A model generated the notes under the pieces. That model was given only the letters and a program-made list of their open reading frames with translations, searched no databases and was not told the DNA's origin. DNA of 64,000 nt, taken from assembly GCA_964388035.1 (NCBI GenBank), contig CAYLZE010000005.1, forward strand, positions 35,742 through 99,741, written 5' to 3'. Origin of the DNA: an uncultured archaeon. GTDB lineage: Archaea; Asgardarchaeota; Lokiarchaeia; Sigyniarchaeales; SOKP01. Below, one piece after another: positions 3,961 to 10,835 of the stretch (position 1 is its first letter; each line of letters begins with the position of its first letter). The position numbers and the translations under genes were made by a program.

Positions 3961-5418
3961 TTAAGGATATCTATTTTTTCGACGATACAATTCCCAACTA
4001 TGCTTGGTGAGCGGATTTTGATTTAAGAAGATAAAATTAAGATTTCTTAATTTTTCTATTCCCTTAAATTGGGTAATGTTATTTCTTTCAAGAAAGAGAA
4101 TTATCAGGCTTTCTAAATTATCAAATCCTTCCATTTCTTTAATGGCATTTTTATCTAAGAAGAGTTCTTGTAATTTGTGGAGGCTATCCAAGCCTTCAAT
4201 TTTTTCTATTTGATTCCCCGAAAGTTCTAGCTTCCGAAGATTAGTTAATGCATCTAAATTTTCAATTTTTAAAATGAAATTATTGGAGAGATACAATCCT
4301 TTTAAGGAATGGCTTTCAGTCAATCCATCGATATGAGAGATACAATTGTCATTAAGATGGAGCCAGAGTAAATCTTTAAGCATTTCTAATCCTTCTATCC
4401 GGGTAATTTTATTTAAGGCAAGATTCAGATTTTTTAATCGGGTTAATTCCTGGAAATTCTGAATTTGGGAAAGATTATTATTGCTCATGCTTAACGTTTC
4501 GAGTCGATTCAATCGTTCTAATCCGTTAATTTCCGTAATTTGATTATTGTCTAATATTAGTGTCTTTAAATTCCTCAAAGGAGAGAGATTTTCTATTTTT
4601 TTTATGAGATTATGAGACATGTCCAAGAGCTCTAAATTAGAAAGTTGCTCGAGATGTTCGATAGTCTGGATGAGATTATTACTTAAATTCAGTGTCTTTA
4701 ATAATTTTAAATGTTCTAATCCGGATACACAAGAAATCTGGTTTTTTTGTAGCAAGAGATGCTCCAAATTGGGGAGTAATTCTAGATATTTTATATCCGA
4801 TATTTGCCTTAGATTGGAACCCTCACAGTTCAATAAGATGATATCCGCATCTTTTAGGGTTACACTATATCCACATCCATTCACGTAATAATCCTTTAAA
4901 GTCAAATTATAAGAAAGAGTGGTTAATTCGGGGGTGATGCTCGTCCATTCTGAAAGTTTTGGAAAAATCCATTCTAATTTTTCTATTTCGCTTCTTTTAT
5001 GAGTTAGTATTAAATAGTTCATGTATTTTTTTAATAAGTTTAGGGACTCTTGATCATTAATAGTGCTAAGGGCATTAATAGTTAATAATTTTTGATCAAT
5101 AGTTCCACTCTTAAGTAATATATACTGAAAGAGAGAAGGCAATTCGGGATGATGGCAGTAACTTTCTTTCAATACCTGCCCCGCTAATTGCTTTATGGGT
5201 TCGGACTCATCCGAGAGAAAAAGCTGCACGTAAAATGAAAAATCATCTCCCATTTCCCTTGTTCTAAGTATTTCTAAGGCTTTAACTCTCCGTGGTAACT
5301 CATTTGAATTAGAAATGATTTCTTTTAAAAAGGTAACTCCTTCTTTATCACTAATTTTTGTCAGATATGATTCGAAATCATCAGAATTACTATTCATGGG
5401 ATCTGATAACGTTCTCAA
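3961..5418 (-). CDS. SDS22-like leucine-rich repeat protein with helical (HEAT-like) N-terminus
   Basis: Repeated 22-aa LxLxxNxIxxIEGLxxLxxL units; true start may be the internal Met (MNSNS). Confidence 0.88.
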   Translation of the reverse strand: MRTLSDPMNSNSDDFESYLTKISDKEGVTFLKEIISNSNELPRRVKALEILRTREMGDDFSFYVQLFLSDESEPIKQLAGQVLKESYCHHPELPSLFQYILLKSGTIDQKLLTINALSTINDQESLNLLKKYMNYLILTHKRSEIEKLEWIFPKLSEWTSITPELTTLSYNLTLKDYYVNGCGYSVTLKDADIILLNCEGSNLRQISDIKYLELLPNLEHLLLQKNQISCVSGLEHLKLLKTLNLSNNLIQTIEHLEQLSNLELLDMSHNLIKKIENLSPLRNLKTLILDNNQITEINGLERLNRLETLSMSNNNLSQIQNFQELTRLKNLNLALNKITRIEGLEMLKDLLWLHLNDNCISHIDGLTESHSLKGLYLSNNFILKIENLDALTNLRKLELSGNQIEKIEGLDSLHKLQELFLDKNAIKEMEGFDNLESLIILFLERNNITQFKGIEKLRNLNFIFLNQNPLTKHSWELYRRKNRYP

Positions 5419-5513: not shown

Positions 5514-6599
5514 TCATGAATAAATGTATTCTTTAACGCTATGATCCTTATCCATGATATCAGCTAAGGCACTATCAAAATGTTTTTGGGTAATCTTTTT
5601 GTTCCTTTCTCTTAAACACTTTATTCCCGCTTCGGTGCACAAAGCTTTAATGTGGGCTCCACTAAATCCATCTGTCACTTTTGCAAGTCGGTTAAAATCC
5701 ACATTGTCTAAATTCATCTTTCTGGTGTGTATTTTTAAAATGCTCAATCGAGCTTCTTCATTAGGTAACCCGAATCGTATTATCCTGTCAAATCGCCCCG
5801 GTCTCAAAATCGCAGGATCAAGCACATCTTCGCGATTAGTAGCCGCTAAAAACATTATACCTTCCGTGTTGGCAAATCCATCCAATTCACTCAACAATTG
5901 CATGAAAGTCCTCTGTACCTCCCGGTCGCCCTTATATACCTCGCTTGTACGCTTTACTGCTATGGCGTCGATCTCATCTATGAAAATTATGGCAGGAATG
6001 TTGATTTTTGCCAGGGTAAAAACTTCTCTGACCATCCTCGAACCCTCCCCGATAAATTTCTGTACTAAATCAGATCCTACTAAATGAATGAATCTCGCAT
6101 TTGTTGAATTTGCAATGGCTTTTGCTAAGAGAGTCTTTCCCGTTCCGGGAGGACCGGATAATAGCGCTCCTGAGGGAGCTTCAATCCCTATCTCTTCAAA
6201 AATCTCAGGATGCAATAAGGGTAATTCTATGACTTCTCGAATGGCCTGTATTTGGTCGTCCAATCCCCCAATATCTTCAAAAGTCACGTTCGGATTCTCC
6301 ATTAATTCCATGGCCGCCACGTGCCCTCGAATGTTTTTTGATAAGATTTCTATAATTTGAAAACTACTTCCATGGAGACTGACCAGATCCCCCGGTGATA
6401 AATTCTCCAAATCGGGTCTGGGCGGTATTAGAATGCGATTACCGGGAGCATGAGAAATAACTACACGCCCATCTTTTAATACCTTCTCAACCGTCCCAAT
6501 GATGAGAGGGTTTTCTTTCATTCGATTTAAGATGGTTCTAAGTTGCTCATTCTCTCGCTCTAATACGCGAATTCTTTTTATATAATCTGATTCAGTCAT
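5514..6599 (-). CDS. pan: Proteasome-activating nucleotidase (AAA+ ATPase)
   Basis: Coiled coil + OB fold; Walker A GPPGTGKT, pore loop KFIGEG, Walker B IFIDEID, SRH DPAILRPGRFDR, C-terminal HbYX motif (IYS). Confidence 0.92.
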   Translation of the reverse strand: MTESDYIKRIRVLERENEQLRTILNRMKENPLIIGTVEKVLKDGRVVISHAPGNRILIPPRPDLENLSPGDLVSLHGSSFQIIEILSKNIRGHVAAMELMENPNVTFEDIGGLDDQIQAIREVIELPLLHPEIFEEIGIEAPSGALLSGPPGTGKTLLAKAIANSTNARFIHLVGSDLVQKFIGEGSRMVREVFTLAKINIPAIIFIDEIDAIAVKRTSEVYKGDREVQRTFMQLLSELDGFANTEGIMFLAATNREDVLDPAILRPGRFDRIIRFGLPNEEARLSILKIHTRKMNLDNVDFNRLAKVTDGFSGAHIKALCTEAGIKCLRERNKKITQKHFDSALADIMDKDHSVKEYIYS

Positions 6600-7044: not shown

Positions 7045-8254
7045 ATGGCTGAAGAAGAAAGCTTTTTAAGTGCAAAAGCATTAGTGGTTGACAACGGTAC
7101 AGGAATCTCTAAAAACGGATTTGCTGGTGAGGACCAACCCCGTTCCGTGTTTCCAACTTTAATCGGGTACCCCAAATATGAAAGTATAATGACTGATGTC
7201 GAGCATTATACGAGAGAATACTATATCGGGGAAGAAGCAATGCAACTCAAGGGTGTATTGAAATTAATGTTCCCCGTAGAACACGGAATCATAGAAGATT
7301 GGACTGCCATGGAAAAAATATGGCACTACACCTTTTATACGGATTTGAGAATTGATCCCAGCGAACATCCCGTTCTCTTAACCGAAGCCCCCTTAAATCC
7401 ACGACCAAACAGAGAGAAAATGGCAGAAATCATGTTCGAAACTTTCAACGTGCCCGCGCTTTATGTTGCCATGCAAGCAGTTCTTTCCCTTTACGCGTCT
7501 GGTAGAACCACCGGATGTGTTATTGATATTGGCGACGGAGTGTCTCACGTTGTACCTATTTTTGAAGGTTTTGCGTTGAGCCATGCAATTCAGAGAATTG
7601 ATTTAGCCGGCAGAGATATTACCACTTATCTCCAACGTCTTTTACGACAAAAAGGTCATTCCTTTACGACTTCTGCGGAAAAAGAAATTGTTCGAGATAT
7701 CAAGGAAAAACTCTGCTACGTGGCCATCGATCCTGAAAAAGAAATGATGCTCTCCAAAAAAGTGGCGGGCATGGAAAAGAGCTACATGCTTCCTGACGGT
7801 GAAACCATTAATGTAGGTGTCGAACGATTTTTAGCTCCTGAATGCTTCTTTAATCCTTCCGTCATTGGAAAGGAATTGGAACCATTAGACGATGTCGTCG
7901 TAGGAGCAATTTCCGAGTGCGATGTTGACTTGAGAAGAGATTTATACAGCAACATTGTACTCTCTGGTGGATCTACCATGTTCCCCGGAATAAAGGAACG
8001 TTTGACTAAAGAAATAAAAGAACAGATCCCCGAATCAGTAGATGTAAAAATAATCGCACCTCCCGAAAGAATGTATTCCGTTTGGATCGGCGGCTCAATC
8101 TTGTCGTCTCTTAAAACCTTCCACCGAATGTGGGTCACTAGACGCGAAACCGAAAGAGATCAAAGAATCTCTCGGCGCGAGTACAAAGAAATGGGCCCAC
8201 AAGTAAAGAGAATCGAAAGAGATTCGATTTCGCTTAATTCATCGCTGCTTTTAA
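7045..8254 (+). CDS. Lokiactin (Asgard actin); predicted spliced CDS join(7045..8148,8182..8206,8238..8254), 381 aa. The unspliced frame runs to 8286 (413 aa)
   Basis: Actin signatures [44 protein letters not shown]; removing two insertions restores ...[20 protein letters not shown], matching eukaryotic [21 protein letters not shown]. Confidence 0.95.
8149..8181 (+). other. Candidate archaeal BHB/BHL-type mRNA intron 1 in Lokiactin (33 nt, phase 0)
   Basis: Central helix CGCG 8143-8146 / CGCG 8176-8179; bulge AA^A; inner stems CCGA/UCGG and GAGAU/AUCUC; 3' AG^U; splicing gives CGC GAA UAC (R-E-Y). Confidence 0.75.
8207..8237 (+). other. Candidate archaeal BHB/BHL-type mRNA intron 2 in Lokiactin (31 nt, frameshifting)
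   Basis: Central helix AAGU 8201-8204 / GCUU 8232-8235; bulge AA^A closed by G8208-C8231; inner stem GAAUCGAA/UUCGAUUU; 3' AA^U; splicing gives GUA AUU CAU CGC UGC UUU UAA (VIHRCF*). Confidence 0.8.
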
Positions 8255-8280
8255 GCACGATGCGGGCCCTTCAAATCGCG
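8240..8280 (+). promoter_or_regulatory. Structured stop-codon/3' UTR element of Lokiactin mRNA
   Basis: Hairpin CAUCG(C)UGCUU-UU-AAGCACGAUG over the true stop; GGGCCC 8264-8269 complements 8193-8198; UCGCG 8276-8280 complements CGCGA. Confidence 0.55.
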
Positions 8281-8286
8281 AATTAA

Positions 8287-8315: not shown

Positions 8316-8852
8316 TATTTTTATATTTTACCCATAAATTAATTGATCAAATCAAGTTCAGTCTATTTTTCAATAGCAATTAAGAATAAATTATTTTATG
8401 TACGAAAATTTCTAAAAAAAATATTATTATTTAGATTGAGGATAGTTTTTTTGTTATCAAAAAAAGGTTTTTTGTGCTAATAATCTATGAAAAAATTCAA
8501 TAAGAAGCTTGCTTTTGTCCTTTTTTTTTATAAAAAATGGTTATTGTAGAGCGCTTGAATAAGTATCAATTAATCTTAACACTTTAGGATTTAATATTTT
8601 TATTATGAAAATTGAATTCTTGAGGTACATTCGCATAATATTCTCAATTTATGAAGTTTAAAATTCAAAATAAGAAGTATATGGTGTCTTTTAGCAAGAT
8701 CAAGTTCAAGGGCACATATAGTATTACCCAAAAGAAAAATTCCCAATGAAGTACCAAATTACTATTCCGATCCTAAAAAAAGTCGGAAAGAAGTCAAAAA
8801 AATAGGAGAAAAAAAAAAGGAGAATGACGGAACCATTTTTTCTGTTAGCAGT

Positions 8853-9137
8853 GAAGAGCAGGGCAAAGAACTTCCCAAGCAGAAGGAAAAGAACTTAAAA
8901 TTCCTGACGAAAGAACAGGGCAAAGAACTTCTCAAGCAGAAGGAGAAAAACTTAAAATTCCTAACGGAAGAGCAGGGCAAAGAACTTCTCAAGCAGAAAA
9001 GGGAGATTTTAAAATTCCTAACGGAAGAGCAGGGCAAAGAACTTCTCAGGCAGAAGAGGGAGATTTTAAAATTCTTGACGGAAGAGCAGGGCAAAGAACT
9101 TCTCAAGCAGAAAAGGGAGATTTTAAAATTCTTGACG
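8853..9137 (+). repeat. 57-bp coding tandem repeat x5 plus a partial 6th (19-aa unit EEQGKELLKQKREILKFLT)
   Basis: Units gaagagcagggcaaagaacttctcaagcagaaaagggagattttaaaattc(c/t)t(a/g)acg directly visible. Confidence 0.92.
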
Positions 9138-10835
9138 GAAGAGCAAGGAAAGGAACCCATCGAGCAGAAAAAGGAAGTAAGAAAAAAAGAGTTTGATTTT
9201 CCTATGAAAGAGCAAGTAGAAAAACGAATGAAAGAGAAAAAAGCATCCATTTTACCAGCTAAAGAAAGCGAGATCAAAAGACAAAACAATTTGGATATTT
9301 TTGAAACGGAAAATAGGAAGATTATACTTAAAGAAAAAGCTCGAGAGCTAGAAAACTCAGTAGGGATTGGCAAAGACTTGAAAGAACGAGATCGGTTAAA
9401 AAGAGAGCAAAATTTAGATGAGCTTTCAAAAGGAAAGATTAATGAAAAAGATATAAAACAAAATAAAAAAGAAGTAATTAAAAACCACAAAGAAGGATAT
9501 TATTATGAAAAAGAGTCGATCCTAAAAGTAAAAGAGAATCCATCTAAGCTTAAACCTAAAGAGCAGATAGAGATTCAACATAATCAAAAAAATACACTTG
9601 AATTTAATACTAAAGAGAAAGGACAGGAAAAGCAAAAGAAGGTGATTAAAGAGCAAGAAAAAGAAGAGACCGAAAATAATGCAATTAAATTATTTGAGGA
9701 TTTACGAAAGGAACTCGGCATTTTAAAGGGAGAGCCTAAAACAATATCTGATCCCAATTTAAGTAAAAGTTTGGGACGGGCTCCCAGCTATGTAATGACG
9801 AAAAAGGCACAAATTAAAGAAAATCCTAAATTTCAACTTTCCTTAAAGGAACTATCAGGATTTCAAGAACACTTGAATTTGAAGTATGGAAAGTTAGCCA
9901 GTCGATGTTCTGAGATAATCGAAAAGTATAAAGTAGCTAATCCAGACTTAAAAGAATATGCTCATGAGCAACATGAGGTTAGTAAGCCCCATTTTTTTTC
10001 TAAAGAAAACATGTTATCTAATACACCAGAAGGGAATAATGCATGCTATTTTTACGGATTTCTCCATGCAGATGGTTATAGAAAAGGTAGGTACGTAATA
10101 GGCAGTAGGATTCATCCGCATGATAAATTAGTTTTAGAAAAAATATGTGACGCGATTGGTATTGATCGAGAGAAAATAAAAGTTAGTGAAAACGTAGCGC
10201 AGTTAGAGTTCAAGTGTAAACCAATGCACGCCGACTTAAAAGAGGTTAAGGAGTATTGCATTCCTAACTTTTTAAGACCAAATAGAAAGAAAGTGCTGCG
10301 TTGGCTTCATGGTTTCTATGATGGAGATGGTACACAAGGTCGGACAAATTTTGGATCAGCACATAAAGAAATCTTGATTGATGTTAAGAAGTATTTCGGA
10401 ATAGAAAATGAAGTTTTAAAAACTCTGGAGAAATATACTTATGTCGATAAAGCTGGAAAAACACATGTTAGAAATGAATATTGGACATTAAGCATTGGTC
10501 CAAAGATATTTAATGAAATGCTGCTTTCTAATCCTTCTGGTGGATTACCTAGAAAATATTCTTTCAAGCAGGAGAAAGATGAATCATATAAAAGGTTAAA
10601 AAGAAATGTTGTTATTTTTGAGAAAAGACTCGGAATGCCACTTCAAGAAGCCCTATATAAATATCGGGTTAGCCAATTTAGGGAAATGTTAGGATCGAGG
10701 TCTACATCATTGCATAGGTTAATTACAGAACGAAAGTTAGAACTACCCCCTAAATCATATTGGAAGGATAAACCTACAATTTGGCCAAACAATGAAGTTT
10801 ATAAAGATTTAAAGGATAAACCATTACATGAATAA
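9075..10835 (+). CDS. Free-standing double-motif LAGLIDADG endonuclease-like protein with long Lys/Glu-rich N-terminus (frame open from 8655; true start probably upstream of 9075)
   Basis: Motifs YFYGFLHADG and WLHGFYDGDG about 85 aa apart. Confidence 0.8.
   Translation: MTEEQGKELLKQKREILKFLTEEQGKEPIEQKKEVRKKEFDFPMKEQVEKRMKEKKASILPAKESEIKRQNNLDIFETENRKIILKEKARELENSVGIGKDLKERDRLKREQNLDELSKGKINEKDIKQNKKEVIKNHKEGYYYEKESILKVKENPSKLKPKEQIEIQHNQKNTLEFNTKEKGQEKQKKVIKEQEKEETENNAIKLFEDLRKELGILKGEPKTISDPNLSKSLGRAPSYVMTKKAQIKENPKFQLSLKELSGFQEHLNLKYGKLASRCSEIIEKYKVANPDLKEYAHEQHEVSKPHFFSKENMLSNTPEGNNACYFYGFLHADGYRKGRYVIGSRIHPHDKLVLEKICDAIGIDREKIKVSENVAQLEFKCKPMHADLKEVKEYCIPNFLRPNRKKVLRWLHGFYDGDGTQGRTNFGSAHKEILIDVKKYFGIENEVLKTLEKYTYVDKAGKTHVRNEYWTLSIGPKIFNEMLLSNPSGGLPRKYSFKQEKDESYKRLKRNVVIFEKRLGMPLQEALYKYRVSQFREMLGSRSTSLHRLITERKLELPPKSYWKDKPTIWPNNEVYKDLKDKPLHE

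Follow-up and report, generated by a model that had tools for sequence, protein, structure and literature searches.

The window, that is, the whole 64-kb stretch of DNA analyzed here, contains an open reading frame (ORF; positions 7045-8286, + strand) for an actin of 413 amino acids (aa) (Pfam Actin, E = 1.7e-127). Its Asgard homologues are 379 to 381 aa long in essentially all cases. The locus thus raises the question of what the additional residues are, and in particular whether a 33-nucleotide (nt) in-frame hairpin at positions 8149-8181, which an earlier note on this DNA had proposed to be an intron, is translated or is removed from the transcript. From the sequence evidence, it is very probable that 8149-8181 is an endonuclease-type intron of the relaxed bulge-helix-bulge (BHB) kind (HBh') in the lokiactin coding sequence, and that it belongs to the class of pre-mRNA introns known from cbf5. 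The observations that bear on this reading are the structure of the insert, covariation among related inserts, exact restoration of the reading frame, the presence of the enzyme genes, and like introns in other genes and in tRNAs. The window comes from a Loki-type Asgard archaeon, whose draft genome comprises 5.47 Mb (211 contigs; 96.7% estimated completeness, 7.3% estimated contamination) and whose nearest database proteins are those of Promethearchaeota.

Two inserts in the lokiactin gene

The lokiactin gene occupies positions 7045-8254 (+) and consists of three exons and two inserts. Exon 1 (7045-8148, +; codons 1 to 368, ending in CGC GAA) is identified by its Pfam Actin match and its identity to homologues. 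It is followed by intron 1 (8149-8181, +; 33 nt), by micro-exon 2 (8182-8206, +; 25 nt, UAC AAA GAA AUG GGC CCA CAA GUA A), which encodes YKEMGPQV plus the first base of an Ile codon and matches the homologues, by intron 2 (8207-8237, +; 31 nt), which lies 25 nt downstream of intron 1 and shifts the frame, and by exon 3 (8238-8254, +; UU CAU CGC UGC UUU UAA), which together with A8206 gives I-H-R-C-F-stop.

The 11 extra residues that follow MWVTR in the window ORF are absent from all 20 aligned homologues (80 to 98% identical). The C-terminal IHRCF is present in all 20, and the window ORF reads on past that point. Likewise, the DNA of a homologue (L003, 98% identical) is without both the 33-nt and the 31-nt stretch. 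Without 8149-8181 and 8207-8237, the coding sequence has 1143 nt (381 codons), and the product is 98% identical to 381-aa Asgard actins. Joining 8148 to 8182 gives CGC GAA UAC (R-R-E-Y), as in all homologues. Right after intron 2, ATT CAT CGC TGC TTT TAA (IHRCF-stop) follows in the shifted frame, and only when intron 2 is removed are this conserved end and a 381-aa actin restored. As intron 1 starts on a codon boundary (8149 - 7045 = 1104) and contains no stop, the ORF listing reads through it and includes 11 extra residues in the 413-aa ORF. Gene callers accordingly give a 413-aa actin that includes 11 inserted residues and ends in 26 false ones in place of the last five.

Structure of intron 1

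The earlier note had described intron 1 as a hairpin of 33 nt, a multiple of three without a stop, that is flanked by what looks like a CGCGA direct repeat and has a relaxed splice motif. These statements hold up. Positions 8143-8182 match the described hairpin exactly (CGCG, AAA, CCGA, AA, GAGAU, the loop CAAAGA, AUCUC, UCGG, CGCG, and AGU), and in RNAfold the hairpin is the minimum-energy and also the centroid structure. The 5' strand of the central helix H (8143-8146, +; CGCG, made up of an Arg codon and the G of GAA) lies in exon 1 and forms 4 of 4 pairs with its 3' strand H' (8176-8179, +; CGCG) at the 3' end of the intron. Next to H is the 5' bulge (8147-8149, +; AAA), which is unpaired in both folds and has its predicted cut after 8148 (AA^A). 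The inner hairpin h' (8150-8175, +) pairs 8150-8153 with 8172-8175 and, beyond an AA bulge, 8156-8160 with 8167-8171, around a loop at 8161-8166. The other predicted cut falls after 8181 in the 3' splice site (8180-8182, +; AG^U), which has no closing exon-exon helix. Region 8125-8200 folds at -22.8 kcal/mol (z = -3.2; 1 of 200 shuffles was as good) and region 8140-8185 has a z of -2.1. In region 8125-8262, which spans both inserts, the two hairpins coexist at -41.7 kcal/mol (z = -3.6; 0 of 200 shuffles were as stable).

The relaxed label is correct because no helix directly closes the 3' splice site in the fold. In the minimum-energy fold, this site is a 2x2 internal loop beside a 2-bp UA:UA stack, and a 7-bp exon-exon helix lies farther off. 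This distal helix, predicted in minimum-energy folds, would pair GUGGGUC (8130-8136, +) with GGCCCAC (8194-8200). The complementarity is also present in L065, L069, and L071, not in all carriers of an intron at this site (site 1), and the helix is weak and possibly incidental. The strict hBHBh' form was not found, as all eight site-1 introns (described below) lack an exon-exon helix next to the 3' site.

Intron 2 shares its architecture with intron 1, namely a 4-bp H, the bulge AA^A, an inner hairpin h', H', and AR^U. Its H pairs AAGU (8201-8204) with GCUU (8232-8235), the 5' bulge AAA is at 8205-8207, h' starts from G8208:C8231, and the 3' site is AAU (8236-8238). The hairpin of intron 2 likewise appears in the fold, and both 8149-8181 and 8207-8237 have the relaxed HBh' form, with 4 of 4 pairs in H and 5 of the first 6 in h'.

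The CGCGA direct repeat around intron 1 is real, and it arises from the palindromic sequence of H; where H is not a palindrome (AACC/GGTT, GGTG/CACT), no such repeat is present. This repeat is among the features that would favor a different origin, in which the inserts entered at the DNA level, as footprints or as miniature mobile elements that duplicate their target, and stay in the transcript, and the actin copy is a decaying pseudogene. Direct repeats do flank some inserts (CGCGA at intron 1, UAA at intron 2), and the inserts are sporadic among relatives, with close sister genomes that are without them. However, repeat lengths vary between elements, and neither the hairpins nor the loop motif NAAAGA is repeated or enriched genome-wide (94 hairpins with this loop, compared with 73 to 101 for control loops). 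Moreover, the gene is the sole canonical lokiactin of the genome (423 bits, versus 285 for the next paralogue), its exons match the nearest relative at ~81% of nucleotides and 98% of encoded residues, and the codons past frameshifting inserts are conserved with synonymous changes. Inert insertions in a dying gene are thus a very unlikely explanation.

A common cleavage rule

If c5 denotes the base that ends the upstream exon and c3 the final base of the intron, both inserts can be read by a single rule. H (c5-5 to c5-2) is paired with H' (c3-5 to c3-2), the bulge (c5-1 to c5+1) would be cut after its second base and the transcript symmetrically after c3, and h' starts with the pair c5+2:c3-6. 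Read in this manner, intron 1 is CGCG AA^A ... CGCG AG^U and intron 2 is AAGU AA^A ... GCUU AA^U. The rule fits 12 of 12 actin introns at four sites and selects the register that gives the conserved protein. Among the equivalent registers of each actin intron, that of the rule scores best. The cuts previously proposed for intron 1 (AA^A after 8148 and AG^U after 8181) are those that this rule predicts, and at 11 further actin introns and 5 introns in other genes it likewise yields the conserved protein.

The features on which the rule relies are less frequent at random positions of this genome. An H with at least 3 of 4 pairs was found in 12 of 12 actin introns and at 16.8% of random positions, and an H with 4 of 4 pairs in 9 of 12 and at 2.5%, respectively. 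When an H of at least 3 of 4 pairs was combined with an h' of at least 5 of its first 6 pairs, 10 of 12 actin introns qualified, compared with 0.66% of random positions. Both bulges start with A in all 12 actin introns (24 of 24 bulges), whereas 11.4% of random positions share this property.

Introns in related actin genes

When 151 genomes of the order were searched in all six frames, the actin proved uninterrupted in nearly every one, including the same-genus genome G137. Inserts were found in G097 (31 nt, exactly at site 1; L040, C12), in G112 (30 nt at site 1 and a further 31 nt between FHR and MW; L041, C2), in G130 (31 nt, exactly at site 2, the position of intron 2; L039, C199), and in G089 (30 nt holding TAG and TGA at codon 87, EDWTA|ME; L038, C140). 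Scans with a degenerate "site 1 plus gap" pattern brought in a further species genome (L066) as well as four different contigs from metagenomes (L068 to L071). Five bacterial matches and one other chance match from these scans were discarded, a number roughly as expected from the degeneracy of the pattern. The actin gene of a further relative, G123:C96:5971-7113 (L046), is listed with one in-frame TGA and is otherwise full length; the TGA may be a sequencing error or have another cause.

Besides intron 1, seven distinct site-1 introns are available (G097, G112, L066, and the four metagenome contigs), with lengths of 30, 31 (five times), and 32 nt, and three other actin sites are also occupied by introns. 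Six of these seven site-1 introns are not multiples of three, and the exons downstream of them are nonetheless intact. Selection thus acts on the codons downstream in the frame produced by splicing, which requires that the inserts be taken out, either ahead of decoding or in the course of it. The site-1 introns differ in sequence while their helices are kept through compensatory changes. The outcome that the earlier note would have held against an intron, a peptide that is conserved while its base pairing is lost, is not seen: relatives keep the pairing, the sequence drifts, and six of the seven other site-1 introns frameshift.

At site 2, introns were found only in the window genome (G000) and in G130 among 154 genomes of the order, and the two are homologous and 31 nt long. 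Exon 3 of G130 (ATA CAC CGA TGC TTT TAG) differs from that of the window only synonymously, even though the unspliced frame would skip these codons. A removal of 34 nt in G130, with a perfect UCAG:CUGA helix and in frame, was rejected, as it drops the conserved Ile. The 31-nt reading, with 3 of 4 pairs in H, was kept because it restores QVIHRCF.

Compensatory change was quantified in an alignment (A3) of the eight site-1 introns, in which 11 pairs were counted (4 in H and 7 in h'). Paired cells made up 80.7% of the total, versus 65.4% in shuffles (0 of 500 as high) and 36 to 44% with slid partners. Both-sided changes occurred in 7 of the 11 pairs, and 6 of the 7 counted h' pairs were kept by changes of this type. 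The covariation score was 0.464, versus 0.189 in shuffles (0 of 500 as high). The third position of H, which is the wobble base of the Arg codon, covaries with its intron partner (U:A in four introns, C:G in one, G:U in one, and unpaired in two).

The recurrence of introns at the same sites also bears on an assembly or binning artefact, which has to be considered for a metagenome-assembled genome with 211 contigs and some estimated contamination, the more so as Logan contigs of source-like runs are shallow and break between 8164 and 8230. However, an independent contig (run X3) extends 16 nt into intron 1 and another (run X1) begins inside intron 2, same-site introns are present in independent assemblies of other projects, and the inserts show an ordered, covarying structure. 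An artefact is hardly credible in view of these findings.

Inserts in other protein-coding genes and in tRNA genes

At least five further protein-coding genes of the window genome are split by 29- to 30-nt inserts with the same succession of H, bulge, h', and H', and all five inserts carry in-frame stops or shift the frame. In four of the five genes, a single Pfam profile continues across the junction when the exons are searched separately. In the FGGY kinase gene (insert L048:901-930 = G000 C149:3761-3790, -), FGGY_N positions 1-78 precede and 79-245 follow the junction. The corresponding positions are 4-143 and 144-242 of NAD_synthase for the NAD synthase gene (L049:460-489 = G000 C45:19136-19165, +), 2-101 and 103-238 of Creatininase for the creatininase gene (L052:402-430 = G000 C50:21722-21750, +), and 1-143 and 146-332 of GDP_Man_Dehyd for the UDP-glucuronate decarboxylase (UXS) gene (L053:531-560 = G000 C5:29388-29417, -), where removal of 30 nt restores the conserved GNVNPVGPRSCYDE motif. 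The insert of the glycosyl-transferase-3 phosphorylase gene (L050:902-931 = G000 C32:9825-9854, -) lies at the junction DKHS|GGV between adjacent domains, with Glycos_trans_3N matched to position 61 of 63 before it and Glycos_transf_3 from position 11 of 253 after it.

A genome-wide scan combined the rule with an ORF-fusion test. The 11,587 raw matches showed no length peak and were mostly boundaries of neighboring genes. A strict subset (H with 4 of 4 pairs, both bulges starting with A, 29 to 34 nt) showed an excess at 30 to 33 nt over a T/T control. Three strict candidates were rejected as joining two different genes, one on C20 by its Pfam matches and those at C2:91080 and on C101 by N-terminus-like sequence past the junction. 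The strict candidates L051 (roadblock), L054, L055, and L056 were left out of the intron count. With the two actin introns, the genome thus appears to hold at least seven mRNA introns of 29 to 33 nt. As in-frame introns without a stop are invisible to the ORF-fusion scan, the true number is probably higher.

The tRNA introns of this genome, as called by ARAGORN, are mostly 23 to 36 nt long, and several obey the same rule. A tRNA-Val(CAC) gene located on the same contig, ~1 kb before the window (G000 C5:34659-34760), has a 30-nt intron that starts with ACCGAAA, like actin intron 1. Only 22 tRNA genes were found by ARAGORN, 15 of them with introns. Many tRNA genes were probably missed owing to non-canonical or multiple introns, such as have been described in a 2026 preprint for other Asgard families. 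Because ARAGORN miscalls tRNA-Val(CAC) as Tyr(ata) and finds few tRNAs, its intron registers are unreliable and were used only for lengths and a few clear cases.

This wider set of introns also speaks to translational bypass ("hop") elements, in which the ribosome takes off ahead of a hairpin and resumes at a matching codon beyond it; phage T4 gene 60 and the byp elements of Magnusiomyces mitochondria are examples. A hairpin does follow the would-be take-off site, and at site 1 a GAA or GAG codon precedes the gap and, in 5 of the 7 site-1 introns scored, one also ends it. However, take-off and landing codons are the same in only 3 of 15 introns with a resolved frame, and re-pairing is excluded by the combinations GAT/TAA (NadE), ATT/TAT (UXS), CAA/TAA (FGGY), and ATA/ATG (G089). 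Bypass would furthermore leave unexplained why the four exon bases ahead of the bulge covary in pairing with the last four paired intron bases, and why the tRNA introns of the genome have the same size and build. We consider that ribosomal hopping has very little to recommend it here.

Splicing enzymes and proposed pathway

Removal of a relaxed BHB intron would call for a suitable endonuclease and a ligase. Two genes of the EndA family (PF01974) are present in the genome. The alpha subunit (202 aa; L001:1165-1770) keeps the catalytic Tyr, His, and Lys; its best solved match is the alpha chain of Aeropyrum pernix EndA (3p1z_B, 1e-35), and it has a stretch that aligns to the Crenarchaea-specific (L1) loop of that enzyme. 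The beta subunit (200 aa; L002:1201-1800) has lost the catalytic His. According to PMC5829648, cleavage of non-canonical introns is confined to (alpha-beta)2 and epsilon2 enzymes; the Asgard EndA is described there as an (alpha-beta)2 type with an L1 loop and is linked to such cleavage. The two-subunit architecture, with a catalytic alpha carrying an L1-like loop and a His-less beta, is one of those to which the earlier note had assigned relaxed motifs, and by its sequence the host encodes an (alpha-beta)2-type EndA that should be able to cut them. A gene for the 3'-phosphate RNA ligase RtcB is also present (G000:C23; PF01139 positions 1-426, 553 bits).

We infer that cleavage and ligation occur, with EndA and RtcB as the enzymes. 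In the proposed pathway, the exonic CGCG at 8143-8146 of the pre-mRNA would pair with the last CGCG of the intron (8176-8179) to form the 4-bp central helix, and the inner hairpin (8150-8175) would serve as the second helix. The (alpha-beta)2 EndA would then cut between the second and third A of the bulge (after 8148) and symmetrically after 8181, and RtcB would join the exons to ...CGC GAA|UAC... and probably circularize the 33-nt intron. Intron 2 (8207-8237, 31 nt), 25 nt downstream and of the same build, would be removed likewise, and both removals together would yield the 381-aa actin with its conserved C terminus.

Several points weigh against this interpretation. The strict motif is not formed at intron 1, where the 3' splice site does not form a closed bulge of 3 nt, so that cleavage depends on a broad-specificity enzyme, and such a range is presumed for the Asgard EndA. 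The H of two of the eight site-1 introns has one mismatch, and the covariation test is limited, as the eight sequences share ancestry and also served to derive the structure. Among 20 DNA runs and one RNA run (public, Logan contigs), the RNA contig (X19) carries neither insert in the form sequenced, but its different flanks and TAG stop assign it to a relative, so that it has no bearing on splicing in the window genome. Finally, intron 1 is in frame and free of stops, so its retention would not abolish translation, unlike that of its frameshifting relatives.

This last property underlies the possibility that intron 1 is retained, always or in part, as an 11-residue insertion and only intron 2 is spliced, which would make it a decaying or regulated intron and give rise to an actin isoform. 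In its length of 33 nt and its open frame, the insert does differ from six of the seven other site-1 introns. However, its motif is the best formed of all site-1 introns (H with 4 of 4 Watson-Crick pairs and an inner helix of 9 bp), no homologue among thousands has extra residues at this position, and the site is located in a segment that is nearly invariant across the family (RREYKEMGP). Retention is improbable in light of these observations, and we favor the removal of both introns.

Evolution and possible mobility

In a nucleotide tree of actin genes, intron carriers were clustered but not monophyletic, and at site 1 the state must have changed four times or more. In three sister pairs with good support (the window genome and G137, G112 and G123, and G130 and G102), one member has the intron and the other lacks it precisely. 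Sequence blocks such as GTAGAGAACTT and TTCACGAA recur among the site-1 introns; common descent with subsequent precise losses thus accounts for at least some of the distribution.

Some similarities extend across sites and gene classes. The site-1 intron of L068 (6853-6916, -) and the tRNA-Val intron share 13 consecutive identical bases (GAAAATTCTGGAA), followed by ATTTTT after a 1-nt indel; the chance expectation is below 0.07 such matches in the 378 intron pairs compared, and the identity hints at movement between tRNA and mRNA introns. Actin introns 1 and 2 share the 10-mer CGAAAGAGAT (window positions 8151-8160 and 8214-8223). Pairs sharing at least 10 bases numbered 5 among the 378, versus 0.5 expected, and 3 of the 5 were between same-site introns. 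The 10-mer in introns 1 and 2 is suggestive, though not proof, of a common origin.

It is conceivable, though less likely than not, that these mini-introns form a population of active mobile elements traveling between the tRNA and protein-coding genes of Loki-type Asgard archaea. If so, the closest archaeal relatives of eukaryotes would now be gaining and losing spliceosome-independent mRNA introns genome-wide, and in-frame, stop-free copies like intron 1 would be hidden in annotations and could yield alternative isoforms. The close genomes with and without each intron constitute a natural system for studying intron gain and precise loss in the closest prokaryotic relatives of eukaryotes.

Genomic neighborhood

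The genes neighboring the lokiactin gene encode a leucine-rich-repeat protein (window 3961-5418, -) and a proteasome-activating AAA ATPase (PAN-like; window 5514-6599, -), both ordinary for Asgard genomes. Near-identical repeats of ~57 nt (window 8850-9100; coding for ...EEQGKELLKQK...) lead into an ORF of 586 aa without a Pfam match (9075-10835, +).

Comparison with known systems

A full-text literature search, whose coverage was incomplete and which is not proof of absence, returned no report of BHB introns in Asgard protein-coding genes or in lokiactin. The closest known case is the pre-mRNA BHB intron in the pseudouridine synthase gene cbf5 of Crenarchaeota (Watanabe 2002; Yoshinari 2006; Yokobori 2009, PMC2738675), which a 2020 study still listed as the only additional BHB intron reported (PMC7714728). 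As in cbf5, the lokiactin introns are short, lie in protein-coding sequence, and have an unconventional relaxed BHB motif; their predicted cuts fall between the second and third bulge bases, where the published rule places those of cbf5 introns (PMC2738675). A hetero-oligomeric EndA of relaxed specificity would likewise be needed, and gain and loss among relatives are sporadic. In contrast to the crenarchaeal cbf5, the host here is a Loki-type Asgard archaeon and the gene is actin, two introns lie 25 nt apart around a micro-exon, the actin family has introns at four or more sites, and no fewer than five other genes of this genome are interrupted as well. Splicing of cbf5 has been demonstrated experimentally (cDNA and in vitro cleavage), whereas the actin introns are known here from sequence. 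What is notable is therefore the host lineage, the target gene, and the pair of introns around a 25-nt micro-exon.

Splicing of protein-coding mRNA by the tRNA machinery has so far been treated as a curiosity of one crenarchaeal gene. Here, the principal cytoskeletal gene is interrupted twice, along with at least five metabolic genes, and the phenomenon recurs at several actin sites in related lineages. As in-frame introns are invisible to annotation pipelines, Asgard proteomes used in studies of eukaryogenesis may hold hidden errors of this kind.

The lokiactin introns also resemble the non-canonical tRNA introns with a relaxed HBh' motif (PMC5829648; PMC2724299; PMC3241643) in their geometry and presumed enzymes, and they fall into the same size class (~23 to 36 nt) as the tRNA introns of their own genome. 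In contrast to non-canonical tRNA introns, they reside in an mRNA, where no tRNA body can aid recognition. Heavily interrupted Asgard tRNA genes have been described (bioRxiv 10.64898/2026.10.13.758758) in a text in which "mRNA" does not occur and "protein-coding" occurs once, for genes neighboring tRNA loci. In Haloferax volcanii, the HVO_1309 mRNA has a BHB intron in its 5' untranslated region (PMC7714728). That mRNA is likewise cut at a BHB by the tRNA splicing endonuclease, as confirmed in vivo and in vitro. However, the HVO_1309 intron is located in an untranslated leader, has a strict BHB, and is processed by a homodimeric enzyme, whereas the actin introns interrupt codons and are relaxed.

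A more distant parallel is found in eukaryotes. HAC1 and XBP1 mRNAs are cleaved by IRE1 and ligated by tRNA ligase or RtcB, and the XBP1 intron is 26 nt long. These introns are likewise very short, bounded by stem-loops, independent of the spliceosome, and sealed by a tRNA ligase, and their removal shifts the frame to a functional C terminus, as would that of intron 2. The nuclease in that system is IRE1 rather than EndA, and the splicing is stress regulated and cytoplasmic; no homology of the introns is implied. Nevertheless, the removal of a ~30-nt intron that shifts the frame to a functional C terminus parallels RtcB-dependent XBP1/HAC1 splicing.

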